Shown piece after piece: positions 145 to 23,972 of a DNA stretch of 26,676 nucleotides. The stretch's first letter is position 1; the number at the start of each line of letters is the position of its first letter. The DNA is from Bdellovibrionia bacterium (lineage in GTDB: Bacteria > Bdellovibrionota > UBA1018): assembly GCA_039916675.1 (NCBI GenBank), contig JBDSKY010000203.1:1-26676 (forward strand). Reading direction: 5' to 3'. The notes beneath the pieces are model-generated. The model had not been told where the DNA came from. It saw only the letters and a program-made list of their open reading frames with translations, and did not search any database. The translations under genes and the position numbers were made by a program.

Positions 145-393
145 CTATTCTTTCGAATGGCTCGCTGCTGCTGAACCCGCAGAGGACTTATGTCTCTCCT
201 CAGACTTCGTAGAAGTACTAGTGGGTTCTCCGCTAAGAACCTTAGACTTGACATCTGTTTTCGCTCCACAGGCGGATTGTGTCTCACCGGTTTCTCCGGT
301 TGAGGTAGGTTCCGTAGCGAAGGAAATAACTCCCCAAGTAACTCCGATAAATCCAAGGACAAGACCAAATACTGTTCTTAATGAAGCCTTCAT
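145..393 (-). CDS. Small secreted, Ser/Thr-rich, probably disordered protein; positional analogue of Bdellovibrio Bd0108 (hit)
   Basis: Strong RBS (AGAAGGAG) before ATG 393. Sec signal peptide ending S-F-A at residue 26. The 56-aa mature part has 21 Ser/Thr, no aromatic residues and one Cys. Lies directly downstream of the RHS gene at the end of a tad cluster. Confidence 0.7.
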   Translation of the reverse strand: MKASLRTVFGLVLGFIGVTWGVISFATEPTSTGETGETQSACGAKTDVKSKVLSGEPTSTSTKSEERHKSSAGSAAASHSKE

Positions 394-442
394 AAAAACT
401 CCTTCTATGATTTACACAAAATAAAATACATTAACTAAGCCA

Positions 443-2143
443 CTAAAAAGCTAAAGTAACTCCAGCTGGACCAATAATATCCAATAACTCTTGAAACTCT
501 TGAGTAACCTGGGAAGCGATTTTTCGTCCAGACGTGCTTTCGACTTTCTTAATATCGCCACTATTAGTGTAGCTTACCGTAATGGTTCCGACCTTGGGAT
601 CGGTAATTTCTATCGGTTTAGAATTCTCGTTGTACTTAAAAGTAATCTCATGACGGTCCTGATCGACTATGCCATGAATTCTTCCAACCGAGTCATAAAC
701 CAATTTTACAGCCTTAGACTGCGAGTTTTTCGCCGTGACAAGATTGCCCTTGCCGTCATAAGAAAATTTAGACCAACTGACTTCCTTTTCCTTACCATTT
801 TCTCGTGTCTTTTTACTTACAGATTCGACTTTACCGACCTTCGAATCATAAGTCAGGTCAGTGGTTTCTTCAGGGGTAACTTTTTTAACGACATGACACT
901 TGTTATCGTATTTAAACGTCGTAACCTGCCCACCCTGCTTAATGGATTCAGGAAGACCACAGGCTTCGCTATAAACTGTCTCCGAAGTCTCGCCGTCTAG
1001 AACGGTTACCAGTTTTTCTGTCCATTCCTCACCGTCTGCTTTTCTTTTATTAAAATACTCGTATTTGCTATCAGAAACCAGCTTACCGTCAGCACCCTTA
1101 ACTTTTACCGTTGCAGTGTAACGATCCTTATTTTCATTGGGGTAATCATAGGCAGTAATCGTTCCATCCCGGTCCTTAATACTCTTAACGCTTTCGAACT
1201 TATCTTTGCCATAATACTCAATGCCCATAGTGGTTTTGTCACCATAGGAGATTGAAATCAGATTGTGTCGTCCAAGTGAATCATACTTATAAGTAAATGT
1301 ATTTTTATCCACATCTACGCTACTCACCAATTCATCCTGGGCATTATAAGTGTATTTGGCGCGCTTCTGATTTTCACCTTCAATATCAGTCAACAACCCC
1401 TTGACATTAAAACGCAATATTATCTTTCTATTGAAATTATCCAGTAGCTCTTTGTAGCCGTTTTTATTATTGATCGAGATAAAATTTCCATTTTTATCAG
1501 AGATTTTTACCAAACGGCCAGATTCATCAAATTTTTCAACACGGCCTGAATCGAAATCTCTCTGATATCCATCGGCTATCTTAGTGATAAATTGATAACT
1601 AAATCGATTGGATTTGAGCTGAGTTCCTTTAGTTAACTGACGAGCCTTGATTTTACCTTGGGCCCGGAATTTTTCCCACTGGTCATTTCTAAAAGTAGCG
1701 TCGGTTTTGAGCTGTTGTCTATAGGAGGTCAGATGTTCCCCGCTTCCGACTACTCCGGAGGCTTGGGCAATTTTAACAATTTCATCTACTGCCTTATCCA
1801 GTTCGGCGGCATTGAATGAGAAGGGAATAAATCGATTTTCAGCGCCGCCACCGTACTCGTGCACTACTACGCTGCCATCAGGAGCTACAGAAAGAAAAAC
1901 TTCATATTCATTGCCCCAACCCCAGCCAAAAACACCTTTGAACGGAGTTTTTGAATTGTAAACCCTTTCTATCTTTGGATCGAATCCGCCCGAATAGACG
2001 ATATCCGTATAACCCACAAAGAAATTCCCGTTTTTCAGGCTTACATTTGCCCAGGTTGGCCCCGCGGACCAAAGGCTTAGCAATCCAGTAATTATCAAAC
2101 TTTTAAAAAACCAGCTTCTAAAAAACGTATTTTCAGTTGTCAT
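443..2143 (-). CDS. Secreted RHS/YD-repeat protein with DUF6531-like N-terminal domain (Bd0109-like)
   Basis: Signal peptide (..PTWA). NVSLKNGNFF..ERVYNS..FGWGW motif typical of the RHS N-terminal DUF6531 domain. Many YD-type repeats (YTYNAQDEL, FSYDGKGNL, VYDSVGRI). 566 aa. Confidence 0.88.
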   Translation of the reverse strand: MTTENTFFRSWFFKSLIITGLLSLWSAGPTWANVSLKNGNFFVGYTDIVYSGGFDPKIERVYNSKTPFKGVFGWGWGNEYEVFLSVAPDGSVVVHEYGGGAENRFIPFSFNAAELDKAVDEIVKIAQASGVVGSGEHLTSYRQQLKTDATFRNDQWEKFRAQGKIKARQLTKGTQLKSNRFSYQFITKIADGYQRDFDSGRVEKFDESGRLVKISDKNGNFISINNKNGYKELLDNFNRKIILRFNVKGLLTDIEGENQKRAKYTYNAQDELVSSVDVDKNTFTYKYDSLGRHNLISISYGDKTTMGIEYYGKDKFESVKSIKDRDGTITAYDYPNENKDRYTATVKVKGADGKLVSDSKYEYFNKRKADGEEWTEKLVTVLDGETSETVYSEACGLPESIKQGGQVTTFKYDNKCHVVKKVTPEETTDLTYDSKVGKVESVSKKTRENGKEKEVSWSKFSYDGKGNLVTAKNSQSKAVKLVYDSVGRIHGIVDQDRHEITFKYNENSKPIEITDPKVGTITVSYTNSGDIKKVESTSGRKIASQVTQEFQELLDIIGPAGVTLAF

Positions 2144-2276
2144 ATATTCCCCCGGATAACAAGTTTGATCTGAACACAGCCAGCCCTTCAGTCCAAATTC
2201 CCCTACAACATTGGACCTAGTTCCTTTACTCAGATATTATCATACATTTCTATAATCATAATATTTTTACTAAATA

Positions 2277-3140
2277 TTACACGTCAATTTTTACAATCTG
2301 CATGATCACAAAAAACCCGACTGCTTCCAACAGGAATATGCCCATTACAATAAGCCATCCAACAGGAGTCGTAACCAGAGGCCGCATAAAATCCGGGTCA
2401 GTTTGAAAGAACACCACCGCCAAAATAGGGGGAATAGCCATGACAAAAACCCCTTGATAAAATCCTTGCGCAGTTAAGGCCGAAATCTTGTTCTCTACCT
2501 TAATTCTTTCTCGGATAGTCGAAACGATGGTATCAAAAGTTTCCGCCAAATTTCCGCCGGTCTCCTTAAGAATATTGATCGAAGTCACAAACATTTCAAC
2601 ATCATCACTTTTTATCCTCTTCGAAAGATTCAAAAAAGCGTCTTCCAAAGATACCCCCACACGGTTTTCACTTAGGACTAACGTAAACTCCTGCTGAATC
2701 GGATTTGGCATTTCCTGGGTTACTAGGCCTAGGGATTGGACTACAGAAAGACCTGATTTCATACCATTGGACATCAAGGAAAGAGCATCCACCATCTGCA
2801 TTACAAACTTTTTCACCCGTTTATTATACATATAGTTGACGATCGGCTTAGGAAGCTTCCAACCTATTATGGTTCCAATAATGGCCAAGGGAATTCCTGG
2901 AAACAGATTGGGCAAAAAAGCCAAAAAGATCAGTGTTCCTAATCCAAAACTTATAGAGAACAATCCAAGCAGGATACGTTGTGGGGGAATATCAATAAAC
3001 ATCATACCTAGACGTTCAACAATATAGTCGCGTGTTCCTAAAGACTGAAATCTCAGCCAATCCAGGAAGCGAGTGCTGTAAATATAGGAAGCTAAAAAGA
3101 CGGATAAACCAAAAAGTAAGATACCCCCGATTTTCATCAT
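2277..3140 (-). CDS. tadB: Tad pilus inner-membrane platform protein TadB (T2SS F family)
   Basis: QMVDALSLMSNGMKSGLS..EF..V..E...G.SLEDA and LKETGGNLAETFDTIVSTIRERIKVENKISALTAQG motifs; TM helices; follows the ATPase gene. Confidence 0.93.
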   Translation of the reverse strand: MMKIGGILLFGLSVFLASYIYSTRFLDWLRFQSLGTRDYIVERLGMMFIDIPPQRILLGLFSISFGLGTLIFLAFLPNLFPGIPLAIIGTIIGWKLPKPIVNYMYNKRVKKFVMQMVDALSLMSNGMKSGLSVVQSLGLVTQEMPNPIQQEFTLVLSENRVGVSLEDAFLNLSKRIKSDDVEMFVTSINILKETGGNLAETFDTIVSTIRERIKVENKISALTAQGFYQGVFVMAIPPILAVVFFQTDPDFMRPLVTTPVGWLIVMGIFLLEAVGFFVIMQIVKIDV

Positions 3141-3155
3141 AATAAGTAAACCGCC

Positions 3156-5330
3156 TTATTTTGCAGAAAACAGTCCCCGTGATATTTTCATCCCCTTGGC
3201 TTCCATTTCCTCTACAAACTTCGGGATAAATCCGGTGGGAACAAACCTTCCGATGATTTTTCGCTTCTTATCTAACCCTTCTTGTTTGTAAATAAAGATG
3301 TCCTGAAGACTAATGACTTCGCCTTGCATCCCTACAACTTCGGTAATGTAGGTTACCTTTCTAGTTCCATCGCTCATTCTAGATTGTTGGATAATTAACC
3401 CGACGGCGGAGGCTATATTTTCCTTAATTGCTTTAGCCGGCAATCCGAGACCGGCCATCATCACGAGAGTCTCCAGACGGGCAATCGCTTCTCGAGGATT
3501 ATTGGCATGCAGAGTCGTCAGAGACCCGGAATGCCCGGTATTCATCGCTGAAAGCATGTCCAAGGCTTCCCCACTTCGACACTCACCCACCACAATTCGA
3601 TCGGGGCGCATTCTGAGACAACATTTAATGAGGTCCCGAATGCTAACTTCCCCTTCTCCTTCAATATTCTTCGGTCGTGATTCAAGTCGCACAACGTGTT
3701 CTTGACCCAATTGAATTTCGGCCGAATCCTCAACCGTAATAATTCGTTCTGACGCAGGGATAAAATTCGAGAGAACATTTAGGAGTGTAGTTTTTCCAGA
3801 TCCCGTACCTCCTGAAACAACAATGTTTAGTTTGGCTTCAACGCAGCATCGCAGAAAATCTGCAATTTCTTCTGTCATGGAGCCAAAAGTGACCAAATCC
3901 TTATATTCAATTCTTTTCTTGGGGAATTTTCTAATAGTAATAGTCGGACCGCGCAAAGAGAGGGGCGGAATAATAACATGCACTCGCGAACCATCTTGAA
4001 GTCTTGCGTCCACGTACGGAACCTTTTCATCAACTCTGCGCCCCAAAGGAGTAACTATTCTTTCGATGACATTCATCATTTGAGATTCACTCGAAAAGTT
4101 AACCTTGGACAACTGGGGCTTACCGGCTTTTTCGATGTAAATTTGGTCTCTGGCGTTCACCATAATTTCAGTCACAGAATCGTCTGCTAACAAATCCTCC
4201 AAGGGCCCCAATCCTAAAGCTTCGTCTAACACTTCCTTTAACATTTGTGCCTTCAGCTCACGAGTGGTGAGAAGGGAACTAGTGTCTTCAGATGCCAGAA
4301 TATCCAGCACACCCTTTTGCGTCTTTTCCCGTAAGATGGCTCGCTGTTTGGGGTCGCTCGTATCGATATTCATCTTTTTCAAATCCATCTGCTCTACCAA
4401 GGATTTGTGAATTCGTAGTTTCATTGCGGTCCAAGGATCCAAAGGAGCTGCGCTACTCCGAGCGCCAGGGCCTCCAGAAGGGTCCTTTCCACCATCGGCC
4501 CCACCGCTCAACAAATCCTTTGCTCCTGCGCCTGCTGCCGCCTTCGCAACTACTCCAGTAGGTTTTTTTAATTTAGCTAAGTTTTCATACAAATTAGTCT
4601 GCTGAATCTTACGAACTATATCGTGATAAGAGCGAGAGATTGGCGCCCCTGCTGCTGCAATACAGAAAGGAATACTTTTAGCCAGAGAACCGTCACAGGT
4701 TGCTACATCCTCTGGAATCGCAGCAAAAATGGCTCGATTCAGATTCTTTTGAATCATTTGTGGGGTAATAATATTGCTCTGTGAATACCTATTAACGACA
4801 ATCTGAACCATTTCCGGCGGGAAGAGTAATTCCTGAATTCTGGCCAATACTCTTTTTGTTTGGTTAATTACGATGACATCTGCCGTCGTAACAACAAAAA
4901 TGGCTGTGGAGTATTCAAAAGTTTTTAATGCCCAGGGGTCCGTACCATTCCCACAATCCACTACGACCAAATTAAATACGTTGGGTGCAGCCTTAAGAAA
5001 TCTGCCCAAGCCGTCAATGTCGATATCTCGAGCGAGAATTGCGTCTTTAGGTGACCCTATGTAACTGTAACCTGCGGGCGCATTTACCATGAAGGGAGCC
5101 AATGACTTAGGATCAATGGCGCCGCCTTGTAATTTCGAAACATCAACGATGCTCTTAGGCGGGTTTTGTCCCAAAATTATGTTTTGATCTCCTAGACTCC
5201 CAAGGTCCAGATCAATAATCAGTGGTCTTTGTTTAAACTCTTGAAGATACGCAATGGCAAGATTAGCGGCGAAGACACTCTTCCCCACTCCCCCTTTTCC
5301 TCCTACTACGGCTACAATATGACCGGCCAT
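3156..5330 (-). CDS. cpaF: CpaE/TadZ-like MinD-type ATPase fused to CpaF/TadA pilus assembly ATPase
   Basis: N-terminal deviant Walker A GGKGGVGKS and Walker B VVVDCG. C-terminal GGTGSGKTT, Asp box TVEDSAE, RMRPDRIVVGECR and His box TGHSGSLTTLHAN. The domains are joined by a Gly/Ala linker. RBS AAGGA. Confidence 0.93.
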   Translation of the reverse strand: MAGHIVAVVGGKGGVGKSVFAANLAIAYLQEFKQRPLIIDLDLGSLGDQNIILGQNPPKSIVDVSKLQGGAIDPKSLAPFMVNAPAGYSYIGSPKDAILARDIDIDGLGRFLKAAPNVFNLVVVDCGNGTDPWALKTFEYSTAIFVVTTADVIVINQTKRVLARIQELLFPPEMVQIVVNRYSQSNIITPQMIQKNLNRAIFAAIPEDVATCDGSLAKSIPFCIAAAGAPISRSYHDIVRKIQQTNLYENLAKLKKPTGVVAKAAAGAGAKDLLSGGADGGKDPSGGPGARSSAAPLDPWTAMKLRIHKSLVEQMDLKKMNIDTSDPKQRAILREKTQKGVLDILASEDTSSLLTTRELKAQMLKEVLDEALGLGPLEDLLADDSVTEIMVNARDQIYIEKAGKPQLSKVNFSSESQMMNVIERIVTPLGRRVDEKVPYVDARLQDGSRVHVIIPPLSLRGPTITIRKFPKKRIEYKDLVTFGSMTEEIADFLRCCVEAKLNIVVSGGTGSGKTTLLNVLSNFIPASERIITVEDSAEIQLGQEHVVRLESRPKNIEGEGEVSIRDLIKCCLRMRPDRIVVGECRSGEALDMLSAMNTGHSGSLTTLHANNPREAIARLETLVMMAGLGLPAKAIKENIASAVGLIIQQSRMSDGTRKVTYITEVVGMQGEVISLQDIFIYKQEGLDKKRKIIGRFVPTGFIPKFVEEMEAKGMKISRGLFSAK

Positions 5331-5357
5331 GACTTGAGTCCTTTCGTACTACGCCAC

Positions 5358-7046
5358 TTACTTTACTTTTACTCTGAAGTTTCTCTTCATATCGTCAGTA
5401 CCCTCTGAAGCATTTTCGATAATTTGAGGTGTTACAAAGATAACAAATTGAGACTTTTTCTTTCGATAGGCTTTGGATCTAAGAAGGGTAAACAAAGGAT
5501 CCGTACCTTGAGAAAAGGCCCCTGGCGAAGGATCATCTTTATTGAAATCGGTGCCTATATCACTTGAAATAACCCCTGCGACGGCTGCACTTTCGCCAGA
5601 TCTCACGTAAATGGTTGTCTTCACTTTATGTGTCGCGGTAATAGGGGGCGCCCCGGTAGCAGGGGCACGGCCTACCAAATTGGTTTGGTTCATTTCTACG
5701 TTAAGTTGGATATCTTCGCTCTGACCCAATATCAAAGGAGTTACTGCGGCGCTCAATCCGACGTCCTTGGTGGCTGCAGTAACTTGGCCATTTTGGCCAG
5801 CCTGATTATAAGGAATTTGCGTCGCCTCAGTAAGAGTTGCGGGTTGGCCACTTCGGACAATGAGTGTTCCTGTCTTAAGAATCCGGGCATAACCTGCTGC
5901 CTGAGAAGAGGCCAATTTAGGAAGAAGAGACGAAAGTGTACCACTAAAGGACGCTCCAGTTGATGCGCCAGCGGCACCTGTTTGGCTTTGTCCGACTTGA
6001 ATCTGAGGATCAGAAGTGAAACCCGGCTGCCATTTAAATCCAAATACCTTATTATAATCTTTGGACAACTCTACGAAATGAACAGTGACTCGAACTAATT
6101 TGTCTGTTTTTTGCGGCGGTGGCGGATTTATTACAATAAAACTCTCAATCAGTTTTCGAGGCGGCGCTCGTTGGACAGTGGGATCTTTTTCCAATAGGCT
6201 ACCTGGTTTCAAATCCGGAAGATAAAGATTGGCCAACTTAAACGCTCGATTAGACTGGTCCATATTGTCAACGGTTCCTTCTAGAAAAATTGTCCCGTTC
6301 ACAACCCGAGTCTTTACATTCGGAGCCCCCGCTGCATTCACATCGTCTTGGATCCTCTTAGCCATTACTTTCATAGCCAAAGGGGAAAGAGTGGTAAGAT
6401 TTAAGACAAAATCCGCGTAACTTTTGTCTTGAATGACCGTCAGCAATCTCCCGTAATCTATAGGTACGATTACTTCACCTTCGATTACCACCTTCGGACC
6501 TACGATCCGAATATCCAATCCCTCCACGTCCCTCAACAGATCTCTTATTTCGTTTGCGATCCTTAGTAGATTTGTCCCGGTTACTCGCACCATGAAAATT
6601 AATTTTAAACTGCCGTCGTTGTCCCGGACAGTAACCGTTGTCTCACCGGCCTTCAGCGGCTTAAAAACGAGTTGTCGTTTCTCTCCGATTTTGACTAGAG
6701 TCGTAGTGACGATTTGGGGATTCCCGTAACTAATCCCGTTTGCACCTGCATTGGCTTCGAAATCCAAATCAACCGCTTTATCTTCCCCGGTGGTTAGAAG
6801 TAAACGCCTTCTATCCGCTTCCCCTTCCGACTCATCATATGTTAGTTTAGATCTCTGATAACGATTTCGCTTTTTGGGAACCAATGTCGGCGGTGCATCC
6901 ACAGGACCATCAGCCGCCTCGGAGATAATATTCAAACTATAAATTAGGATGCTAAGGAGCAAGATTAGGCAAACCCGTCCCTTAAGGACCTTGCCCAAAG
7001 CAGACTGTTTCCAAACTGCATCCCGGAGTTTTTCAACCCATTTCAT
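5358..7046 (-). CDS. cpaC: Tad secretin CpaC/RcpA with pilus-secretin N domain and BON-like domains
   Basis: N domain (GNPQIV..LVFKPLKAGETTVTV); BON-like segments (IRIVGPKVVIEGEV; VKTRVVNGTIFLEGTV); secretin C-terminal motifs (VRSGQPATL, PLFTLLRSK..FVIFVTPQII). ATGA overlap with cpaB. Confidence 0.88.
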   Translation of the reverse strand: MKWVEKLRDAVWKQSALGKVLKGRVCLILLLSILIYSLNIISEAADGPVDAPPTLVPKKRNRYQRSKLTYDESEGEADRRRLLLTTGEDKAVDLDFEANAGANGISYGNPQIVTTTLVKIGEKRQLVFKPLKAGETTVTVRDNDGSLKLIFMVRVTGTNLLRIANEIRDLLRDVEGLDIRIVGPKVVIEGEVIVPIDYGRLLTVIQDKSYADFVLNLTTLSPLAMKVMAKRIQDDVNAAGAPNVKTRVVNGTIFLEGTVDNMDQSNRAFKLANLYLPDLKPGSLLEKDPTVQRAPPRKLIESFIVINPPPPQKTDKLVRVTVHFVELSKDYNKVFGFKWQPGFTSDPQIQVGQSQTGAAGASTGASFSGTLSSLLPKLASSQAAGYARILKTGTLIVRSGQPATLTEATQIPYNQAGQNGQVTAATKDVGLSAAVTPLILGQSEDIQLNVEMNQTNLVGRAPATGAPPITATHKVKTTIYVRSGESAAVAGVISSDIGTDFNKDDPSPGAFSQGTDPLFTLLRSKAYRKKKSQFVIFVTPQIIENASEGTDDMKRNFRVKVK

Positions 7047-7876
7047 CTCTTCAATTGAGCCCCTTTTACTCGACTCATCTCTGCACCTAGAACATCGGCC
7101 ATCACCGTAGCGGGAAAACTCAATCGCTCGGAATCATCATTGTTACGCAATGAGAGTGTCAATGCATTATCTCCATTGGCCATCACCAATGCCAAAGCTT
7201 GAGCCTGGGAAGGCTCCACCTCTAAAGTAACTGAATTATAACTAAAGTCCTGAGATAGGGGTCTTACTCTTTCCTTTCCCCCAGAACCGTCAGATTCAAT
7301 AATACGGGCCACGTTATTTGTGACATAACGACCAATAGATAAAATAATGACATCTTGTAGGACGGTCTTTGCAATTTTGTTTTCTTTACCGCCACCTGCC
7401 TCTAACACTGCAATCAGATCTACCCGATCTCCTGGCTTGATTAGCTTAGAGACACCTGAAGTTTCATTTACCGGAATAGATATTGCTCTTCTTCCCGGGG
7501 CAATTTGAGGTGCCAGCCCTGTCCTCATGCTCGGTTCGGTAATTTTATTGTAGGTAATCTGTTCACCCTTACGGATAGGGACGATTGCGACGACTCCTGC
7601 CAAACCCTTCAAGGCCTTGGAGGTTTCCTTGTCTTGCTCTTTCTTTTCCAAAGAGATCGCAGCAGGTTCTAAAAATCTTTTTGGAATTAACTTTAGCTCA
7701 AGTGAAGTTTCATTGAGCGTCTCCATTTCCTTAATGTCTCGTCGCGCTACAATCACGAGGATCTCAGTCCCAAATTTTTTCTTGGCTTCTTCTTCGATAC
7801 TGCTGACATAGCTCTGGACGAAAAAGACTGCAATCCCGGCCATCACTAAAGCTAAGGTAAGTGCTCTATTATTCAT
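7043..7876 (-). CDS. cpaB: Flp pilus assembly protein CpaB/RcpC (SAF domain)
   Basis: N-terminal TM; VARRDI SAF motif; GRRAISIPVNETSGVSKLIKPGDRVDLI; LQDVIILSIG; VTLEVEPSQAQALAL..LTLSLRN. Confidence 0.93.
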   Translation of the reverse strand: MNNRALTLALVMAGIAVFFVQSYVSSIEEEAKKKFGTEILVIVARRDIKEMETLNETSLELKLIPKRFLEPAAISLEKKEQDKETSKALKGLAGVVAIVPIRKGEQITYNKITEPSMRTGLAPQIAPGRRAISIPVNETSGVSKLIKPGDRVDLIAVLEAGGGKENKIAKTVLQDVIILSIGRYVTNNVARIIESDGSGGKERVRPLSQDFSYNSVTLEVEPSQAQALALVMANGDNALTLSLRNNDDSERLSFPATVMADVLGAEMSRVKGAQLKR

Positions 7877-7924
7877 ATTTAATAACCATTATCGCGAAAT
7901 CATGAACGGTTTACTCCTAAATAT

Positions 7925-7952
7925 GTATCGGAGTCCTGCTATCCCAACTTAA
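7925..7952 (-). promoter_or_regulatory. sigma28 (FliA)-like promoter of the cpaB-cpaC-cpaF-tadB genes
   Basis: TTAAG-N15-TCCGATAC, 48 nt upstream of the cpaB ATG. Same spacing as the motifs at 9263-9290 and 23973-24000. Confidence 0.65.
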
Positions 7953-8010
7953 ACCTTGCTTGTTATCTCCGACCGAAAAGCTCCATATCCAATTTAACCC
8001 CTTTTGGTGG

Positions 8011-8304
8011 TTAGTTGGCCTTGGGGTTCAGGAATACTCGAAACTTGGAATTGCTGAGAGGCCTAAGAAGATCTCCACTAGCTGAGTCGGCCCGACTGGG
8101 TATTTTGCCGTATTGGTAAGCAGACGCGAACTGTACTGTAATTGGAGACATCAGTTTCTGGGCCACCCCAATTCTACCTATTCCTTTGGCAATCATGAGG
8201 TAAAAGCTCAGGACAACTGCCATAAGCAAGACATATTCGGTAGTGGCTTGACCGCCTTCCTCCCGGACTACTAAGAGCTGCGGGCAACGGCCTAATGGAG
8301 CCAT
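8011..8304 (-). CDS. Flp/TadE-like minor pilin (third pilin)
   Basis: G|QATTEY class III cleavage motif with E+5/Y+6, followed by a hydrophobic helix and a longer C-terminal domain than the other two pilins. Confidence 0.78.
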   Translation of the reverse strand: MAPLGRCPQLLVVREEGGQATTEYVLLMAVVLSFYLMIAKGIGRIGVAQKLMSPITVQFASAYQYGKIPSRADSASGDLLRPLSNSKFRVFLNPKAN

Positions 8305-8840
8305 AAACCACCAAAATGGAGAAATGGGTTAGCAAAAGCTACCCAAACAGCCGCAATTGATAAAGGTATCCCGAAGGGCATCGTAAATGCCTTATCCACC
8401 TTGGGCAGCTGAACCTCTAATTCTCGAATAAATAAAGTGAGAAGAAAATTGTAGAATCGAAGGAGGAATCCGAGCAGTCTTCCGCTCGCTAATAGAATGA
8501 CAAAGGCAAATGCTCCGCCGATTACGATACCTAGAAGTGCTACTTGGAGCGTATATTCGGGACCTGCCAAAGCTCCAAATGCCATAAGCAATTTAACATC
8601 CCCGCCACCTATTATGCGAAGACCAAAGAGCCACCCATAAAATAATAGGCCTCCTAAAAAGCCCAACAAGGCTTGCCCTACCCCCGGCCAGCCCAAGAAA
8701 TAATAGCTGGCTAAAATTCCGCTCAAAGCTGTAGGGAGAGTGATCCAATTGTAAATTTTTCCGAAAAACAGATCGGTGAGTGTAGCCAGCCCGGCCACTC
8801 CCAAGATTAGATATTTGATGAATTCAATTTTGCCAAGCAC
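8292..8840 (-). CDS. cpaA: Prepilin peptidase, A24 family (CpaA/TadV)
   Basis: Catalytic motifs TDLFFGKIYNW and GGGDVKLL, C-terminal MPFGIPL, multiple TMs. GTG at 8840 (GGGG upstream) preferred over the track start at 8888, which would overlap the upstream pilin by 65 nt. Confidence 0.9.
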   Translation of the reverse strand: MLGKIEFIKYLILGVAGLATLTDLFFGKIYNWITLPTALSGILASYYFLGWPGVGQALLGFLGGLLFYGWLFGLRIIGGGDVKLLMAFGALAGPEYTLQVALLGIVIGGAFAFVILLASGRLLGFLLRFYNFLLTLFIRELEVQLPKVDKAFTMPFGIPLSIAAVWVAFANPFLHFGGLWLH

Positions 8841-9072
8841 TGGGCCCCAGTCTACCAGTTTTGAGATCCCGTTCAAGTTGAGCACCAATTAGCAATACAG
8901 CGCGGTCTAAAGTTGAAAGAATTTTCTTCGCAACCTGCGAAGCGGCAACAACTGATACAGATAAAATTAGGATATATTCCACAGTTCCTTGTCCGCGTTC
9001 ATCTTTAAGTAAGTCTATTAATCCAGGAATTAATACTGCCGCCCTAATTTGCGTTTGCTCTTCCTGCTTCAT
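8824..9072 (-). CDS. flp: Flp-family pilin (second pilin); start uncertain
   Basis: DERG|QGTVEYILIL motif with hydrophobic helix. The only canonical start (9072) overlaps the upstream pilin by 29 nt. Confidence 0.8.
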   Translation of the reverse strand: MKQEEQTQIRAAVLIPGLIDLLKDERGQGTVEYILILSVSVVAASQVAKKILSTLDRAVLLIGAQLERDLKTGRLGPSAWQN

Positions 9073-9232
9073 CGATTTCGTTACCTACTGTACCAATCAA
9101 GTTTTCCAACTTACTTTGGAATAAGGTTTTAAACCTCATAGTTACCATGACCACTACAGCCAGAATAAGAATGTATTCAGTCGTGGATTGCCCCGTATCG
9201 TCGGTCAATAATCTTTTTAAATACCTTTTCAT
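9044..9232 (-). CDS. flp: Flp-family major pilin candidate (62 aa)
   Basis: Very strong RBS (AAGGAAAGGAGG) before ATG 9232. MKRYLKRLLTDDTG|QSTTEYILIL leader and Flp motif. First gene after two promoter-like elements. Confidence 0.9.
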   Translation of the reverse strand: MKRYLKRLLTDDTGQSTTEYILILAVVVMVTMRFKTLFQSKLENLIGTVGNEIDEAGRANAN

Positions 9233-9262
9233 CGTGCCTCCTTTCCTTACCATGCGTCTAAG

Positions 9263-9290
9263 TGATCGGCATACCTCGATGAGGTCTTTA
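9263..9290 (-). promoter_or_regulatory. sigma28 (FliA)-like promoter of the pilin operon
   Basis: TAAAG-N15-GCCGATCA, 30 nt upstream of the flp ATG. The spacer contains the inverted repeat ACCTC-N3-GAGGT. Confidence 0.7.
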
Positions 9291-9328
9291 ATCTAGTCCT
9301 CAAATCAGGTTCACTTGCTCTACCTATT

Positions 9329-9356
9329 ATTATGCTACTTATATTTATAAAGTCAA
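9329..9356 (-). promoter_or_regulatory. sigma70-like promoter upstream of the pilin operon
   Basis: TTGACT-N16-CATAAT, each box matching TTGACA/TATAAT at 5 of 6 positions. Confidence 0.5.
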
Positions 9357-9374
9357 TACACCTAGTGCAGGCGA

Positions 9375-10133
9375 TTAGAAAATCACTAAAGATATCGAAG
9401 CATTATCCTCAAATTGAATCGAATTTAAGTATTTGCCAATTTCCTGCACGCTTATCGCCAAACCGGTGTTTTTACTCTGAATTATTGCAATTTGTTCGAT
9501 AACTTGACTCAGAATTCCATCTGTGTTGAGAACCAACCAATCGCCGGGAGTAATTCTATATTCTACGATTTCGGGTTCCAAATTCTCATACATGCCTAAA
9601 GCAATTAAGGGAGCTCGATATTCCATCGCACTATCACGCTCCAAAGGATCTCGGAGCCGGCCAAAACTCCTTGGCACCACTAATTCAATACTTCTACCTC
9701 CGCGAAATAACCAACCAGTGCAGACTCCTACATTCGCGAGCGCAAGCAAATCACCATCGATAAAACCAGCAAGGATTGAGGCGCCGCCTTTTTCATGTAT
9801 ATTTTTACCTTTATTGAGTGCATTGACTTTCTTATTAGCGAAAATCAGGGAATTGAAAAGAACGTTACCTGCGAGAGAAAAATAATTCTTTAAAACGAAA
9901 GGTAGCGTGGCCTCCAAATCCCCTGCCTCCTTATAGAGAAAGTGTTGCACACTTTCACAAGCTGTTTTTGCCGCCTGCTGTCCAGGAACCGGCCCTCCAA
10001 AACCATCGGCAATGATAAACATTCCTTTTTCCCTGTCGACTAAAAGGTAATCTTCCTGAGCGGGCCGACGGCCTTTACTAGCGAAGGTAGAGATGGCTTG
10101 CACAGGAATATTAAGATGTCTATTGGCACTCAC
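9375..10133 (-). CDS. PP2C/PPM-family Ser/Thr phosphatase-like protein (PrpC/Stp1 type) with degenerate motif 5
   Basis: Motifs RRPAQED, IADGFGG, LNTDGI and EDNAS are present. The usual ANVGDSR reads ANVGVCT. GTG start overlaps the stop of the upstream gene. Confidence 0.82.
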   Translation of the reverse strand: MSANRHLNIPVQAISTFASKGRRPAQEDYLLVDREKGMFIIADGFGGPVPGQQAAKTACESVQHFLYKEAGDLEATLPFVLKNYFSLAGNVLFNSLIFANKKVNALNKGKNIHEKGGASILAGFIDGDLLALANVGVCTGWLFRGGRSIELVVPRSFGRLRDPLERDSAMEYRAPLIALGMYENLEPEIVEYRITPGDWLVLNTDGILSQVIEQIAIIQSKNTGLAISVQEIGKYLNSIQFEDNASISLVIF

Positions 10134-12481
10134 GGCTGGGGTTCCTCTTTCTTTTCAAAATAGTGAGCCAATTTACGTGCTGCTCGCTCGTGGTAGATAT
10201 CATCCACAGGGGAACTATCTAAACATTGTTTAAACATTTTTTTAGCGTTTTCGAAATCACTGTAACTTTCGGCAATGATTGCTTCTGTGTAAATAACCTT
10301 GGCCCGATCATGAAGAATACCTTTAACTCGGTTCATACCGGCATATCCTCCTGGATGGGGAGGGTCAATTTGGGTAGCTTTTTTGTAAAGTTTAAAGGCC
10401 GTGAAATACTCACCAGCATCTTCTTTAACTTTAGCTTCCGCCAATACGGGCTCACGCGAAGCCTTGATCAAGGCCTGACAGCGCCGGATTTCTCCTTTTG
10501 CAAGGATGCCAATTTTCTTTTGGGTGGCACCTAATTCGAGCGCTCTTTGAAAAGAATTGATTGCGGTATGGTATTTTCCGGACTTTTTGAAGCTTAGCCC
10601 CTCTTTGTAGATCACCCATGCATTTTTATTGAGTGCAGCCACGACCTCTTTCTGTTGCTCAACCAGTTTCAGTTGTTCTTTATAAGCTTCAATTTCTTTT
10701 CGCCATCCAGCTACCGCAGTATTGTCAGGATCTAGAGAGAGAATTTGTGTGAAAAGTTCGTTCACGTTTTCGTAATCTTTCTTTCCCATTCTTACTTTTG
10801 TATCTTCCACCAGGTGATTGATTTTATCTTTCAACTGGGCTTCATCTTCTTTCTTTTTCCTTTCCTCTTCCAAGGCCTCTAATTTCCTTTTCCCTTCCTT
10901 CGCATATCGTTCAATTTCACGTGCATCTTTATAGTCAGGAATCAGAGCGAATATTTTTGTAATTTCAAATATCGATTTGTCATATTCTTTATTCTTATAA
11001 TAATCAAAAGCAAGGGCGTGTTGAGCTTCTACGAACCCCTTCTGTTCTGCGGAAAGCGAGTCAAAGCTAATAGGGGCAGTAGCTATTTTCGAGCCATCAG
11101 AATTTTTCTTCACGACGGCGGTTTTTTTCCCGGCACCCTTTTTCTTTTTTATTCCAGTAGCGTCTTCGTCGGTTAAAAACATGAAAAAAAGAATCGCGGC
11201 TATCGCGGTAATAATTTGAGTTCGCTTGGGGAGTTCTTTGAAGCGCTCAAGTAGAGTCCGCTTTTGGCTACTACCTCCCGCCAGTCCCGTTATTCCCATT
11301 GTTCCCGAGCCACCGGACATCCCCTGCACTCCGGGAATTCCTCCATTTTGGTTTCCCAAACTGGGTTGAGAACTTGCGAAAGATTGGGCGATTGGCATTT
11401 CTTGCTGTTGAAACTCTTCTGGGATCAACCCGCTTTCAGCATCCATCCCCGGCTCAGGGACAGACATTTCGAAACCCTCCACAGCTGGAGCATTATCGAC
11501 TTCCATAAAATTATTTTGATTTTTGGCGTATTCCGCACTTTCTGCTTTAAACTGAAACCGAACCTCTCCAATTTTGATATAATCATCCCCTGAAAGCTCG
11601 TGATCTTGGATTTTTGCTCCGTTGACATAAGTTCCGTTGGACGAGTTCAAATCTTTAATTAGGAAATTTAAACCTGCTTTTCTTATGACAGAATTTTTCC
11701 TTGAAGACTTTTTGTCATTTAGAACGATATCGCAATCCTTACCTCGACCAATGGAGGTTTCATCTTTCGTAATACTGTAGTCCGTGACGTTTGCTGTACC
11801 CGGCTCAAAAATCAGACGGACGTTGAGCGTGCTAGCTGGAGTAAACTTAGTTTTGCCGTCATCAGCAATTAATTCGGAGGGTTCAGGCTCTGGAGAGAAA
11901 TCCTGTGAGGAATCGGGAGCGTCTAACTCGAGATTACCTTCAGACGCAAATTCCAAGGCATTTCCATCTGGGCTAATCTCTTCGGATGGCGAGTTCTCCG
12001 ATGAGCTATCTGTGACTGAAGATTCAAGTGGGTCCGGTGCGTTGTCTATTAAAGGTGCCAACGATTCGGGCGAACTAGTCTCAGGATTATCGAGGCTAAG
12101 TGCTTCAGGCGGTGTAAGGTCGAGAGTTTTAATCGATAAATCTTCCGTCCCACCTAGTGTCTGGGTTGGAGCGGTAGAAATAGATTTTCCCGCTTCCATG
12201 GAAACCTTGATAAGATAAGGTCCAATTGAAATAACGTCTGAATGATTTAGCCTCGCCGAAACGCAATCGGCACCATTTACTATGAGGGTGCCAAATTCAC
12301 TTTTTTTCTCTACTTGAAGGTTTCCCCCCACCCACTTAAAAACAGCATGGTGTCGCGAAATTCCCTGATCATCGAGCCGGATTTCTGAATCCTTCGATCG
12401 ACCAAGAACTAACTCACCCTCCACTAGGCATGTCTTAACGACTACTCCTTCTTTGATAACGGTGAGATTGGCGGTACTCAT
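10130..12481 (-). CDS. Double-FHA, single-TM, TPR/coiled-coil membrane protein
   Basis: FHA1 (LGRS..ISRHH..SEFGT) and FHA2 (IGRG..SSRKN..SSNGT) separated by an acidic Ser/Pro/Glu linker. TM QIITAIAAILFFMFL. C-terminal TPR-like helices (ELFTQILSLDPDN, AINSFQRALEL, YKKATQIDPPH). Confidence 0.82.
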   Translation of the reverse strand: MSTANLTVIKEGVVVKTCLVEGELVLGRSKDSEIRLDDQGISRHHAVFKWVGGNLQVEKKSEFGTLIVNGADCVSARLNHSDVISIGPYLIKVSMEAGKSISTAPTQTLGGTEDLSIKTLDLTPPEALSLDNPETSSPESLAPLIDNAPDPLESSVTDSSSENSPSEEISPDGNALEFASEGNLELDAPDSSQDFSPEPEPSELIADDGKTKFTPASTLNVRLIFEPGTANVTDYSITKDETSIGRGKDCDIVLNDKKSSRKNSVIRKAGLNFLIKDLNSSNGTYVNGAKIQDHELSGDDYIKIGEVRFQFKAESAEYAKNQNNFMEVDNAPAVEGFEMSVPEPGMDAESGLIPEEFQQQEMPIAQSFASSQPSLGNQNGGIPGVQGMSGGSGTMGITGLAGGSSQKRTLLERFKELPKRTQIITAIAAILFFMFLTDEDATGIKKKKGAGKKTAVVKKNSDGSKIATAPISFDSLSAEQKGFVEAQHALAFDYYKNKEYDKSIFEITKIFALIPDYKDAREIERYAKEGKRKLEALEEERKKKEDEAQLKDKINHLVEDTKVRMGKKDYENVNELFTQILSLDPDNTAVAGWRKEIEAYKEQLKLVEQQKEVVAALNKNAWVIYKEGLSFKKSGKYHTAINSFQRALELGATQKKIGILAKGEIRRCQALIKASREPVLAEAKVKEDAGEYFTAFKLYKKATQIDPPHPGGYAGMNRVKGILHDRAKVIYTEAIIAESYSDFENAKKMFKQCLDSSPVDDIYHERAARKLAHYFEKKEEPQP

Positions 12482-13497
12482 GTCTTCCCTACCTCACCTT
12501 TGATTGTCTTGACCACCTGATCGAACTGATCTCGAGCTTCAATGTAAGCAGGATTTGCTTGGTCCCGAAAGAGCAAGCGCATAACTGTTTCGAAATGCCC
12601 CTTTGCATCACGAAGCTTGCCGGCTTCGAAAGATTTTTTGCCACCTTCCAAGTTGACTTTTACTTCTTCTTCTACGGCCTTATTACAATTCTCGAGGTAC
12701 AGGGTAGCCAATACATGGTTGGGACTGATTTGAAGTACAGTCTCGAATTGAATACGAGCCCTGCCATAATTGTGCACAAAATATTCTCTGAGACCGTCCT
12801 TGAAAATAGTTTCTGCCGATTTATTGAAATCAGGTGTCGGAAGAAAAGACGCAAGATCTTGACCTGATTCATTGCTTGGGGTTTTCGATTTCGGTTTTGC
12901 AGGTTTATCCGGATCTCCTAAAAGGAGTAAGCCGAGTCCTACAACCCCAACAATATAAATAAGAGGTTTTTTACTTTTTGATGCGCTCCCTGGGGCCGCA
13001 TTCCCACCAGCGGCATCGAAGACGTTAGCGGCTCTTCCCGTAAATTGACCAAAGCTTTGATTCACCCGATCTTTAGCTGCCTGGAATGTTCTTTGATGTA
13101 ATTTAACTTGGCCGGCCGATCTAGCCGGGGACATTAAAGTCTTGGTCCCCGCTTCTGGCGATATAAACTCAAGAGTAGTTTCTCCTAGAGTAAATACATC
13201 AAAGTACTGAAGTGCTGATTCCCGCGTAGGTTTTGAATTAATTAAAATCCCGTTTGAACTTCCATGATCCTTGATTCTCCAGTTTCCCCCCGGATCTTGG
13301 ATCATCATAGCATGTAATCTTGAGGCCTTGAGATCGATCAAGACAATATCATTATCCTCACCTCGACCAATAGAGGCAGTCGGACCTGTAATGATAAAGG
13401 TGGACCCGAAGTCAGCCCCTTGGACCACTTTTAGACGGGCCCTTTCTTGAGGGTGTCGCGGTACATTCGTATGCTTGTACTTTATAGCATTACCCAT
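12478..13497 (-). CDS. FHA - TM - TPR membrane protein
   Basis: Canonical FHA (IGRG..ASRLH..SSNG), TM LIYIVGVVGLGLLLL, TPR (ARIQFETVLQISPNH; AKGHFETVMRL). Confidence 0.82.
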   Translation of the reverse strand: MGNAIKYKHTNVPRHPQERARLKVVQGADFGSTFIITGPTASIGRGEDNDIVLIDLKASRLHAMMIQDPGGNWRIKDHGSSNGILINSKPTRESALQYFDVFTLGETTLEFISPEAGTKTLMSPARSAGQVKLHQRTFQAAKDRVNQSFGQFTGRAANVFDAAGGNAAPGSASKSKKPLIYIVGVVGLGLLLLGDPDKPAKPKSKTPSNESGQDLASFLPTPDFNKSAETIFKDGLREYFVHNYGRARIQFETVLQISPNHVLATLYLENCNKAVEEEVKVNLEGGKKSFEAGKLRDAKGHFETVMRLLFRDQANPAYIEARDQFDQVVKTIKGEVGKT

Positions 13498-13504
13498 CTC
13501 ACCT

Positions 13505-15142
13505 TCAGTCGACTTTCACGGCTGCCATTACAAAACATTTTGGGGCGTTTCCTTCGGAGCCAAAGCCAGCCATATAAATTTTGCAGCCCACTCCAGAAAA
13601 ATCAAAATCCTCAACGAGTCCCTCCCCTCCAGTTGACACTCTTCCCAGCAAATCGTTGGTCATCGACCCCATTGCCTGATCTCTTGCGACACTAGAAATA
13701 TCCTGCCCCATCGCAGATTCGGACCTAATGCCACTCATTTCTTCAAATATTGAGTTTATGAAAACAATTTTTCTCTCAGAATCAAAAATTAGAAATCCAA
13801 ATTTTACAAGGTTTCCAATCATTCTCAAAGGACCGACAAATGCTTCAGTGGATTCACCGGAATTACTTGAACTTTCAGGACTATTGTTCCTGGAGACCCG
13901 TTGAATGGCTGAATTAATAATATCCCAAAGTGGATTCAGCTCTTCGATTTTAAATTCATGTGTGACTTGGTTCATGTCTCCCTTTAAAGCTCTATCAATA
14001 TCTTCGTTAAGAACTTGGAAGGGTTTCAAGGTCATGCGATATAGAATTAAAAATATGAATCCCAAAATTATCGCGGTGATCGCAAGAATTTCGGAATAAA
14101 TCACGCCTAATTCGCCCATTTCAGGAGTGGCCAAGGAACTGTCGATTGAAACTATTGCCATGGCAACAACCACATTCCTTCCGGCAGTCGGACTCAGAAC
14201 TTTCACGGGCTCTACGGCAACTAGTGTGGACTCATCTGCCTCAATCCAATAACCTGTCTCTCTGCCCGATCGAAAAGAATCCCTGGCTTTAATGGCAACC
14301 GCAGCTTCAGCCCCTGACGCCAAATATTGATTCAACTTGGCTGAAGGAGCAATAATCCGATTATCCAAATCCACCAACATGGCGGTTCTAACTCCATCGG
14401 CATTTTCTATAATTCCAATTTCACTTTTAGTTTCCATTCTATTAGCAAGAAACGGGGCATTTTGATCCGCAATCTGCCTTGCCATAAAGAGGGCCCTTCG
14501 ACCGGTTTCTTTAATAATGGCTTGATGACTTGATTCCAAAAGTGGGTAGACTGATACCGTTAAATTCAGAAACGAAAACATCAGAAACATGCCAACGGCG
14601 ATGGCGCGCCATTCATATTTGAGATTGAGACTATAAAAAATAGGCATGAACTGGTGATCAAAGGCCCAGGCAATTTTGCCGCGAAGATCTTTCGGAGGAC
14701 CTTCCAGCTGACTCATTTCAGCCCCACTTCCCATTCCTGGAATGCCTGACATCCCCCCAGGGGGATTTGGAAAGCCGCTTCCTCCCATCGCCGGAGGTGA
14801 TTGAAACTGGCTCCTTATTTTCTTAGGAAGCGCCATGGGCTTCACTGCTTTTTTTACTGGCTTAGAAAGCTCAAATACATATTCTCCCACACTAATTCGG
14901 TCGCCCTCTTTGATTTTTCTGAATTTAGTAAGAGTGCCATTCACAAACGTTCCATTGGAACTTCCCTGATCTTTTAGAATCACCTCATCGCCGGTGACTG
15001 TGAGTGTGCAATGAATTTTGGAAACCTTGGAGGAGGGAAGGACTACCGCGTTTCCTGCTTGCCGACCAATGGCTAGCTCGCCTTCTTGGACCGCATAGGT
15101 CGTACCTTGGTTTGGACCGGAAATTACGGTTAACTTATACAC
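13505..15142 (-). CDS. FHA - TM - extracytoplasmic domain - TM - HAMP - PAS-like protein with no output domain
   Basis: FHA (IGRQ..VSKIH..SSNGTFVNG); TM1 WRAIAVGMFLMFSFLNLTV; TM2 ILAITAIILGFIFLIL; HAMP-like LKPFQVLNEDIDRALKGD..EELNPLWDIIN; PAS-like FLIFDSERKIVFINSIFEEMSG. GTG start. Confidence 0.78.
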   Translation of the reverse strand: MYKLTVISGPNQGTTYAVQEGELAIGRQAGNAVVLPSSKVSKIHCTLTVTGDEVILKDQGSSNGTFVNGTLTKFRKIKEGDRISVGEYVFELSKPVKKAVKPMALPKKIRSQFQSPPAMGGSGFPNPPGGMSGIPGMGSGAEMSQLEGPPKDLRGKIAWAFDHQFMPIFYSLNLKYEWRAIAVGMFLMFSFLNLTVSVYPLLESSHQAIIKETGRRALFMARQIADQNAPFLANRMETKSEIGIIENADGVRTAMLVDLDNRIIAPSAKLNQYLASGAEAAVAIKARDSFRSGRETGYWIEADESTLVAVEPVKVLSPTAGRNVVVAMAIVSIDSSLATPEMGELGVIYSEILAITAIILGFIFLILYRMTLKPFQVLNEDIDRALKGDMNQVTHEFKIEELNPLWDIINSAIQRVSRNNSPESSSNSGESTEAFVGPLRMIGNLVKFGFLIFDSERKIVFINSIFEEMSGIRSESAMGQDISSVARDQAMGSMTNDLLGRVSTGGEGLVEDFDFSGVGCKIYMAGFGSEGNAPKCFVMAAVKVD

Positions 15143-15534
15143 AGTTTGTCTCCCTCTCTAAGGTCACATCTTTGAATTGTCCCCACCGGTAATTCCAGAG
15201 TTTGAAACGCCTTAAAATCTCGCACGGGAAGAATGCGCCAAGGCCTCAGGTTTTCACGCACTGAGGTCACCTCGACAGTATTGTCAGAAGAATTTTGATC
15301 ACGTTTCAAGAACACTACGTCGATTGGAATCTTCATAAACCACATATGAATATCGTTACACGGACGCAAAAGTAATCCCTGCCCTTCCGCAAGGGCCCGC
15401 TTGCCCATCAAACCGATAAATCGACTTAGAAAAGTAGTTGCCACAGAACACTCTTCGGCAATCCAGGTACTATTTTTGACTGATTGAATACGAATTATTG
15501 ATCCGACGGACTTTTGAATAGTTTGGGTTTTCAT
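15130..15534 (-). CDS. DUF192 (UPF0127) family protein
   Basis: VATTFLSRFIGLM..GLLL....IHMWFMKIPIDVVFL..LELPVG motifs. Confidence 0.88.
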   Translation of the reverse strand: MKTQTIQKSVGSIIRIQSVKNSTWIAEECSVATTFLSRFIGLMGKRALAEGQGLLLRPCNDIHMWFMKIPIDVVFLKRDQNSSDNTVEVTSVRENLRPWRILPVRDFKAFQTLELPVGTIQRCDLREGDKLCIS

Positions 15535-15547
15535 TCAGTTATTATTA

Positions 15548-16462
15548 TTAAGCCGGGGGATAAATCAAACTTAAGCCGAAAGGACCAAAGATCATCAACA
15601 TAACTGCCGGTAAAATAAAGAGAACTAGGGGTAATAGAACTTTTTGAGCTGCCGCAGCGCCCGCCTTTTCGGCTCGAACCATGCGTTCTGACCTAATCTG
15701 CTCCGATTGCTGCCTCAGGATTTTGCCAATGGAAGCCCCCATTTGATCGGCAGAAATCAAAATTGCCACGAAAGAGTTCACCTGCGTCATATCGATTCGA
15801 GCGGCCATCTCTCGAAGCGCTTCTTGTCGCGATGCGCCAACTTTTATTTCTTTCAAAAGCTGAGAAAATTCTTCCACTATTGGACTGGAGGGAGCTTTGT
15901 CCACAACTTTACCAATAGCACCGACAAAATCGAGCCCCGCTTCTGTGGACAGGGCCAGAAGATCCACTATGAATGGCATCGCTCTTAGGACCTGTTTTTG
16001 GCGAGTCTCGATGCGACCATTAGCCCAAAAATTAGGGTAGAACCACCCGATTAGCCCAAATCCCAGAATATAATACCAGGCTAAATCAATGAAATCGCCC
16101 GCTTTTAGCATTCCACCCACGAGTGGGAAAAAAACGATCAAGGCGACTTTAAAAGAAATAAATTCGTCGGCAGTCAGCTCTTCTTTAAGCCCTGCTGCAA
16201 TAATTTTTCTTCGAAAGAATTTTCTCTTTTTATCCCAGAATGGCTTACCGCGGATGATTGGAACAACATACTGCGTAAAAAAAGGCCGGAGAAACTTAAC
16301 CAGCGGATTGCTAGCTTTGCGATCGCGCAGCTCGTCTAAATTCTCTTGAGCTGCACGCGACTCTTGCTCAACTAACACCATCCTAGCAACAATAAAGGCC
16401 GCCAGACCTACAAGCGCATAACCCGCATTGATAACAAACTGGCCTCGTTCAAATGCATCCAT
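15548..16462 (-). CDS. tadC: Tad pilus inner-membrane platform protein TadC (T2SS F family)
   Basis: RAMPFIVDLLALSTEAGLDF, GASRQEALREMAARI, ADQMGASIGKILRQQSEQIR, KVLLPLVLFILPAVML. Confidence 0.93.
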   Translation of the reverse strand: MDAFERGQFVINAGYALVGLAAFIVARMVLVEQESRAAQENLDELRDRKASNPLVKFLRPFFTQYVVPIIRGKPFWDKKRKFFRRKIIAAGLKEELTADEFISFKVALIVFFPLVGGMLKAGDFIDLAWYYILGFGLIGWFYPNFWANGRIETRQKQVLRAMPFIVDLLALSTEAGLDFVGAIGKVVDKAPSSPIVEEFSQLLKEIKVGASRQEALREMAARIDMTQVNSFVAILISADQMGASIGKILRQQSEQIRSERMVRAEKAGAAAAQKVLLPLVLFILPAVMLMIFGPFGLSLIYPPA

Positions 16463-21987: not shown

Positions 21988-22011
21988 GAAGTTGAGTTAG
22001 TTCAATCAATA

Positions 22012-22743: not shown

Positions 22744-22753
22744 TGCAAAAATT

Positions 22754-23935: not shown

Positions 23936-23972
23936 TCTTTCCGCTCAATTAGCGGCGGGCCCAATCCATAAC

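Follow-up and report, generated by a model that had tools for sequence, protein, structure and literature searches.

A contiguous Tad pilus locus in an uncultured Bdellovibrionota genome, related to the Tad machine of Bdellovibrio bacteriovorus

Contig JBDSKY010000203.1 of an uncultured Bdellovibrionota bacterium (26,676 nucleotides (nt), analysed over its full length and called the window below) carries a Tad pilus locus at positions 145-16462. This cluster is very probably the one-block orthologue of the Tad pilus (type IVc, 'Kil-like') that Bdellovibrio bacteriovorus needs for lasting attachment and invasion. The locus is a real, well-preserved one-piece copy of an already known machine: the TAD/hit locus, the TadZA fusion, the separate tadC locus with its FHA/TPR genes and the relationship to the Kil system are already published. 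The one-piece layout is a lineage trait of the window's class and is not peculiar to the window, and the feature that is particular to this window is a missing pair of TadE/TadF-like minor-pilin genes.

Contig C203, which makes up the entire window, belongs to a metagenome-assembled genome that is fragmented (3.43 Mb in 578 contigs) and has a completeness of 80.8%; gene families were assigned by Pfam, NCBIfam and PDB searches of the window's open reading frames (ORFs). The ORF list of the window contains 16 tightly packed ORFs within the ~16 kb of the locus, all on the minus strand. In the direction of transcription they encode TadC, a DUF192 protein, FHA3, FHA2, an FHA-FHA-TPR protein, PP2C, Flp1, Flp2, TadV, a third Flp-type pilin, CpaB/RcpC, the secretin, TadZA, TadB, an RHS/DUF6531 protein and a secreted protein of 82 amino acids (aa; Table 1). 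A preliminary description of this DNA had named 16 co-oriented genes of these families, and indeed all ORFs were found where it had placed them and the assignments were upheld by Pfam and NCBIfam. Its wording of a near-complete Tad machine is a slight overstatement, because two TadE/TadF-like minor-pilin genes present in 31 related loci are absent. TadD, TadG and RcpB were not seen in the locus either.

Table 1. Features of the Tad locus and its conserved neighbour, listed in the direction of transcription of the locus
Feature	Positions	Strand	Evidence and remarks
TadC, inner-membrane platform protein (KilH/Bd0470 type), first gene	15548-16462	-	Pfam T2SSF 6.6e-15; three predicted membrane helices
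DUF192 protein	15130-15534	-	Pfam DUF192 1.5e-17; without signal peptide or membrane helix
FHA3	13505-15142	-	N-terminal FHA 5.1e-16; Yop-YscD_cpl 6.7e-17; predicted helices 180-198, 352-370
FHA2	12478-13497	-	N-terminal FHA 5.9e-13; one predicted helix 178-196
FHA-TPR protein, 783 aa	10130-12481	-	FHA 9.4e-30 in two stretches; C-terminal TPR families; one borderline helix
PP2C/PPM-type Ser/Thr phosphatase homologue, last module gene	9375-10133	-	NCBIfam Stp1_PP2C (Stp1/IreP type) 2.9e-16, residues 23-250
Junction of TadC module and pilin core, 121 nt	9254-9374	-	sigma-70-like site TTGACT-16-CATAAT, 9356-9329; same junction in 32/34 class loci
Flp1 pilin, 69 aa	9044-9253	-	Flp1_like 2.3e-5; motif G/QSTTEY, then hydrophobic helix
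Flp2 pilin, ORF of 82 aa	8824-9072	-	weak Class_IIIsignal and Flp1_like; motif G/QGTVEY
TadV prepilin peptidase, A24, <=198 aa	8292-8888	-	Peptidase_A24 4.3e-14; catalytic Asp motifs LTDLF, GGGDVKLL; without methyltransferase domain
Third Flp-type pilin, 97 aa	8011-8304	-	motif G/QATTEY and hydrophobic helix; same position kept in relatives
Spacer between third pilin and CpaB, 134 nt	7877-8010	-	site of two TadE/TadF-like genes in relatives
CpaB/RcpC	7043-7876	-	TIGR03177 3.3e-47; RcpC 2.9e-24
RcpA/CpaC secretin with BON and pil_N	5358-7046	-	Secretin 6.1e-18; BON 2.7e-4; pil_N 7.4e-3
TadZA, 724 aa	3156-5330	-	T2SSE 1.4e-64; CbiA 1.3e-13; Walker A motifs at residues 11 and 507
TadB platform protein (KilG/Bd0110 type)	2277-3140	-	T2SSF 9.7e-17; syntenic in 40/40 genomes
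Secreted RHS/YD-repeat protein, 566 aa, positional orthologue of Bd0109	443-2143	-	RHS_repeat 3.1e-18; DUF6531 4.2e-10
Small secreted disordered protein, 82 aa, Bd0108 position	145-393	-	signal peptide; mature 56 aa: 21 Ser/Thr, 1 Cys, no aromatics
NagZ-type GH3 beta-N-acetylhexosaminidase, neighbour of TadC	16555-17649	+	NF003740 256.8 bits, cut-off 207; without signal peptide

Likeness to the Bdellovibrio, Kil and canonical Tad systems

The genes Bd0109-Bd0119, Bd0108 and the Bd0470 locus of B. bacteriovorus HD100 encode the same families as the window in the same order, hit-RHS-TadB-TadZA-RcpA-CpaB-...-Flp. HD100 has the same TadC-DUF192-FHA-FHA/TPR unit and likewise extra TadA paralogues, and the window proteins were 34-49% identical to those of a Bdellovibrio-type genome. 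The TadZ-TadA fusion is also the same: in the window, a ParA/MinD-type TadZ domain from residue 4 is followed by a Gly/Ala-rich linker and then by the TadA/CpaF ATPase, and as in HD100 there is no receiver-like domain. In a sample of genomes from the phylum, 201/201 matched this fusion over its full length. Most core genes of HD100, the TadZA fusion among them, are located in tad locus 1 adjacent to the hit locus, TadC is encoded separately, FHA/TPR regulators lie near tad genes, and the tad loci contain no TadV, Flp1 being processed by PilD (10.64898/2026.07.08.737194). The same study showed that the B. bacteriovorus Tad machine is essential for prey invasion and lasting attachment, and read the scattered genes, the separate tadC and the missing peptidase as signs of heavy remodelling; the Flp pilins are needed for predation (PMC5430801). 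By contrast, the two loci are contiguous in the window, compared with ~366 kb between them in the Bdellovibrio-type genome G099. The window also has a dedicated TadV where Bdellovibrio relies on PilD, and its module includes FHA2 and PP2C, neither of which was detected in G099 at E<=1e-3. The TadE/F-like minor pilins are a further difference, being missing from the window locus.

The Kil system of Myxococcus xanthus (MXAN_3102-3108 and MXAN_4648-4661) shares with the window locus a Tad-derived machine, many FHA proteins, a single ATPase, the lack of TadD and RcpB, an FHA+TPR protein (KilD, MXAN_4648), an FHA protein beside the TadC-type KilH, and a BON/pil_N secretin. According to the published supplement, KilD is FHA+TPR, MXAN_4649, encoded directly upstream of KilH, is an FHA protein of PrgH-like type, and KilC contains BON, pil_N and secretin regions (PMC8460266). 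There, Bd0470 is listed as the orthologue of KilH (TadC-type), and Bd0110 to Bd0113 as the orthologues of KilG, KilF, KilC and KilB (Seef 2021, PMC8460266 supplement). We regard the window locus as a probable member of the Kil type because these Bdellovibrio orthologues were placed there in that publication and UBA1018 genomes are classed as Kil in PMC13200544. The two systems nonetheless differ in that KilF has an N-terminal FHA domain, whereas the N-terminal domain of the window ATPase is of the ParA/MinD (TadZ) type. Furthermore, the Kil genes are split otherwise, the two platform genes lying side by side in one cluster, no RHS/hit pair, DUF192 or PP2C is listed for the Kil clusters, and Kil assembles at contact sites and not at the pole.

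With the canonical Tad/Cpa systems (Aggregatibacter tad, Caulobacter cpa), the window shares Flp, TadV/CpaA, TadA/CpaF, TadB, TadC, RcpA/CpaC, RcpC/CpaB and TadZ/CpaE. In contrast to them, its TadZ has no receiver-like domain and forms one polypeptide with TadA, its TadC lies at the cluster end opposite TadB, and it adds the FHA/PP2C/DUF192 module and the RHS/hit pair. The type VI secretion system (T6SS) of Pseudomonas aeruginosa (Fha1, PpkA, PppA), cited as a model for the Kil FHA proteins (Seef et al. 2021, PMC8460266), also has FHA protein(s) and a PP2C encoded with an envelope-spanning machine. However, the machine is a different one and the window locus has no kinase gene; the likeness is one of logic only.

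Joined and split layouts across the phylum

We located the 16 window proteins by tblastn within 20-kb stretches surrounding TadZA, taken from 40 genomes that represent 24 families. In 40/40 genomes the genes stood in the order RHS-TadB-TadZA-RcpA-CpaB, and the full joined order was present in 18/20 genomes of the window's class; one of the two exceptions was cut by a contig end, and in the other the TadC half lay 33 kb off on the same contig. A further set of 80 named loci was centred on TadC, with the class boundary set at a TadC identity to the window of 49%. At or above this value (the window's class), 32 of the assessable loci were joined and 2 split, and below it (Bacteriovorax/Halobacteriovorax type) 0 were joined and 13 split. 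The claim that two parts are physically joined here was correct, but the joined layout is not special, being normal in the class and present in two deeper families as well. The survey across the phylum also showed that the FHA, RHS and DUF192 genes co-occur with Tad, so that the second of the refuting observations named in the preliminary description was not made.

The joined order was also found in family f12 and, interrupted by an insertion, in f23; genomes of Bdellovibrio, Bacteriovorax and other types did not have it. In f12, two Flp genes, a third pilin, two TadE/F-like genes and CpaB come directly after the FHA/TPR gene. In f23 (genome G039, L043:3976-8168), three reverse-strand housekeeping genes, encoding a VIT1/CCC1-like membrane protein, a short-chain dehydrogenase and aminopeptidase N, are inserted exactly between the PP2C and Flp genes. 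This arrangement looks like a split in progress, intermediate between the two layouts. In one further locus (L098, JAALKR010000024.1, ~14900-16400), a TadZA match came directly after the PP2C gene, and neither Flp, TadV and CpaB nor a secretin could be detected in between; L098 is a rearranged variant of the locus.

In five split genomes of other classes, TadC lay far from TadZA, as in G099 already mentioned and on different contigs in G120. These genomes, together with the publications, bear out the statement in the preliminary description that the tadC/FHA cluster of B. bacteriovorus lies apart from the hit locus. The TadC of the window showed 42-45% identity to its distant counterparts in split genomes, where TadC is still followed by DUF192, FHA3, (FHA2) and FHA/TPR, and in the Bacteriovorax type by PP2C too. 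On the TadZA tree, which is unrooted, a minimum of three changes is required to explain which loci are joined and which are split. We think it likely, with some reservation, that the joined layout is ancestral and was split several times; this is favoured because the same junction is present in the deeper families f12 and f23.

A TadC-alignment search of named genome records returned only uncultured Bdellovibrionota genomes, including UBA1018 at 78% identity. The loci of the relatives CAIRTR01 (L052) and JAMPXJ01 (L010/L123), at 72-74% TadC identity, were fully syntenic with the window. In PMC13200544, the CAIRTR01 and JAMPXJ01 genera are placed in class UBA1018, for which the name 'Bdellonasia' is proposed, as sister to Bacteriovoracia. 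The window's class is apparently this uncultured class. On the TadZA tree, it was sister to the Bacteriovorax-type family, which gives the same picture as the published sister relation. PMC13200544 also describes vibrioid magnetotactic cells in UBA1018 and reports a Kil system for the class, whose locus (e.g. FG-1) is drawn beside those of HD100 and M. xanthus in Fig. 6; in its accessible text, neither the joined layout nor the hit genes nor the FHA/DUF192 module is analysed.

Components of the locus and its neighbours

The six-gene module TadC-DUF192-FHA-FHA-FHA/TPR-PP2C was present in every locus with enough sequence among the 80 further TadC-centred loci. Judged by this gene order, the unit from TadC to PP2C is a fixed module across the phylum. 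A protein atlas look-up of TadC led only to generic TadC clusters. The DUF192 gene followed TadC directly in nearly all of ~100 loci across the phylum, joined or split, and our literature search found no paper tying DUF192 to Tad pili; its invariant place after TadC is the most specific new lead. The three FHA proteins together carry four FHA domains, one of the proteins also has TPR, and each has 1-2 predicted membrane helices. In FHA3, ~150 aa separate the two helices, and the C-terminal part is weakly WalK/PAS-like (WalK-like 3.2e-5). The PP2C homologue matched tPphA in the PDB (2j82, 7e-6), and DGFGG and TDG are among its motifs. Other contigs of the same genome encode at least 13 Hanks kinases.

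All three small pilins carry the Flp processing site G/xxxxEY. The true start of Flp2 is probably later than the ORF start, because the ORF overlaps Flp1, and TadV probably starts downstream of 8824. Contigs C365, C561 and C415 (L002-L004) carry additional TadA-like ATPase genes; these show 38-52% identity over the ATPase part and recall the tadA2 and tadA3 paralogues of HD100.

The distance between the third pilin and CpaB, 1040-2427 nt in the 31 related loci, is reduced in the window to the spacer listed in Table 1. The closest relative (L006) has two TadE/TadF-like minor-pilin genes at this site, encoding 185 and 201 aa. Relatives have one TadE-like copy only, located in the locus, and in the genome of the window the only matches were fragments at contig ends (C436:12589-12780 and C311:4993-5154; L131, L132). 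The C436 fragment adjoins sdhC/sdhA, and that sdhC is only 36-43% identical to the sdhC of family members; the C311 fragment adjoins an orphan gene without homologue in relatives. The stray fragments may reflect relocation, strain mixture or mis-binning. In the Kil pilus, the tip that recognises prey is formed by minor pilins (PMC12075869), and this gives the absence of these genes its importance.

At the RHS/hit end, the RHS gene followed TadB in 40/40 genomes, and the protein was 32-34% identical in Bdellovibrio-type genomes. Most genomes have, downstream of it, a small signal-peptide ORF with a polar, Cys-containing, low-complexity tail. In a Bdellovibrio-type genome (L040), the Bd0108 orthologue is an ORF of 101 aa whose cleavage site, ...ASA/DE, is that published for Bd0108. 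The 82-aa protein of the window agrees with the Bd0108 type only in its position and its composition. Interaction between Bd0108 and Bd0109 has been shown, both appear to be periplasmic, mutations in Bd0108 alter pilus extrusion, and Bd0109 appears essential (Capeness et al., PMC3818213). Four loci of families f15 and f25 (L026, L027, L028 and L044) have two tandem CpaB genes and, after the RHS gene, another small protein that is Lys-rich, helical-looking and without signal peptide; in these families the Bd0108-type partner seems to have been replaced.

On the other side, the NagZ-type gene adjoined TadC in 56/68 loci with sufficient upstream DNA. It was divergent from TadC in 36/47 loci of the window's class, co-directional and immediately upstream of TadC in 20/21 Bacteriovorax/Halobacteriovorax-type loci, and not found beside TadC in the Bdellovibrio-type genome. 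From its position, we regard it as a conserved neighbour and only a candidate member of the system. The remaining genes, at 17668-26676, encode two unknown minus-strand proteins, a TonB receptor, CheX, PAS-SpoIIE and a HAMP-Hpt sensor, and were beside the Tad locus in 0/120 related loci. As members of the system they were rejected for this lack of conservation next to the locus in relatives; by this comparison they appear to be chance neighbours. Promoter-like sites in the window were not commoner than in shuffles (31 vs 28.5 +/- 5.5), and transcription units were therefore not defined by a promoter/terminator scan.

Proposed function, alternatives and significance

By homology with the Bdellovibrio and Kil systems, the machine could work as follows. 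TadV would cleave and mature the Flp pilins, and TadZA, positioned by its ParA/MinD domain, would supply the power for the pilus to extend and retract on TadB and TadC, through CpaB and the secretin. In Bdellovibrio, the TadZ part of TadZA binds the polarity hub RomR. The FHA membrane proteins may bind phosphothreonine marks set by Hanks kinases encoded elsewhere, and PP2C may erase them, so that the marks would gate assembly or activity on envelope or prey contact, as has been proposed for KilD and the Myxococcus FHA proteins and for T6SS. Such control by phosphorylation is suggested by analogy. The RHS protein and its small partner would tune pilus extrusion and retraction in the periplasm, as proposed for Bd0109 and Bd0108.

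Several points weigh against this picture. The putative role in predation comes from homology alone. Parsimony on the TadZA tree allows either two joinings or three to four splits and is thus compatible with either layout as the older one. The TadE/TadF-like genes had no match on the window contig. No Pkinase domain was found in the window, and the cognate kinase is thus not encoded with the FHA and PP2C genes. Motif 5 of the PP2C homologue reads GVCT, and to judge from its motifs the protein may be weakly active or inactive. Finally, the 82-aa protein had no tblastn match to Bd0108 or relatives, the closest genome included.

Other explanations of the locus were weighed against the same evidence. 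A fragmented, low-coverage metagenome genome could produce a joined layout by assembly or binning error, and the number of contigs, the incompleteness and the low depth of the sequence (word depth 2-5), which was found in rhizosphere and soil metagenome runs of one study, would fit such an artefact. However, the 32 joined loci with the same order and junction are independent and come from other studies, and the same order was present in 18/20 class genomes. Furthermore, one per-run Logan contig spans 9153-9757, and thus the PP2C/Flp1 junction, with 0 differences, and the best run reported no joints or loose ends in the locus. The artefact is therefore effectively refuted. A different possibility is that the lineage is non-predatory or only facultatively predatory and uses the locus for a Tad pilus of the ordinary kind, serving adhesion or surface sensing; the locus would then share ancestry with the Bdellovibrio system and not its use. 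The rhizosphere source of the metagenome is compatible with this, in most bacteria the task of Tad pili is adhesion and surface sensing (10.64898/2026.07.08.737194), and some UBA1018-class bacteria may not live by predation alone, according to PMC13200544. Against it, the whole accessory set (TadZA fusion, RHS/hit pair and FHA module) has been kept across a phylum whose cultured members are predators, and the Kil-type classification published there includes UBA1018 genomes. We consider it unlikely.

Even less probable, and in our view very unlikely, is a machine that is mainly a secretion or toxin-delivery device, with the RHS protein as cargo or effector and the small protein as its immunity or chaperone partner. 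An RHS protein with a small downstream gene is a typical toxin-immunity pair, as discussed in PMC3818213, and a type II secretion-like role was left open for Kil (Seef 2021, PMC8460266). Yet the RHS protein is short (566 aa), and only RHS repeats and DUF6531 were detected in it, with no toxin domain. Whereas an immunity protein is cytoplasmic, the small protein encoded downstream is secreted and disordered, and the essential, periplasmic character that Bd0109 appears to have, together with its binding of Bd0108, is at odds with such a pair (PMC3818213). The evidence thus remains best accounted for by an orthologue of the Bdellovibrio Tad pilus.

With regard to the wider meaning, the window itself adds little beyond many sister loci, save for the missing minor-pilin genes. 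The value of the locus is comparative and lies in the fixed accessory module, the probably ancestral contiguity and the dedicated peptidase. As a further step, which we propose tentatively and hold at somewhat less than even chance, the one-piece locus would be ancestral to the phylum-wide predatory Tad, and DUF192, the three FHA proteins and PP2C would be its obligatory parts, forming a checkpoint at which threonine phosphorylation would control how the TadC platform is assembled. If the ancestral one-piece reading is true, the dispersed layout and the loss of TadV in Bdellovibrio would be secondary. The sister class presents in one block, with its own peptidase, the same parts that are scattered genes in Bdellovibrio. 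Since the unit from TadC to PP2C travels as a fixed module, guilt by association argues strongly that DUF192, the FHA proteins and the phosphatase belong to the machine or regulate it, and yields a short list of candidate machine genes in the model organism.

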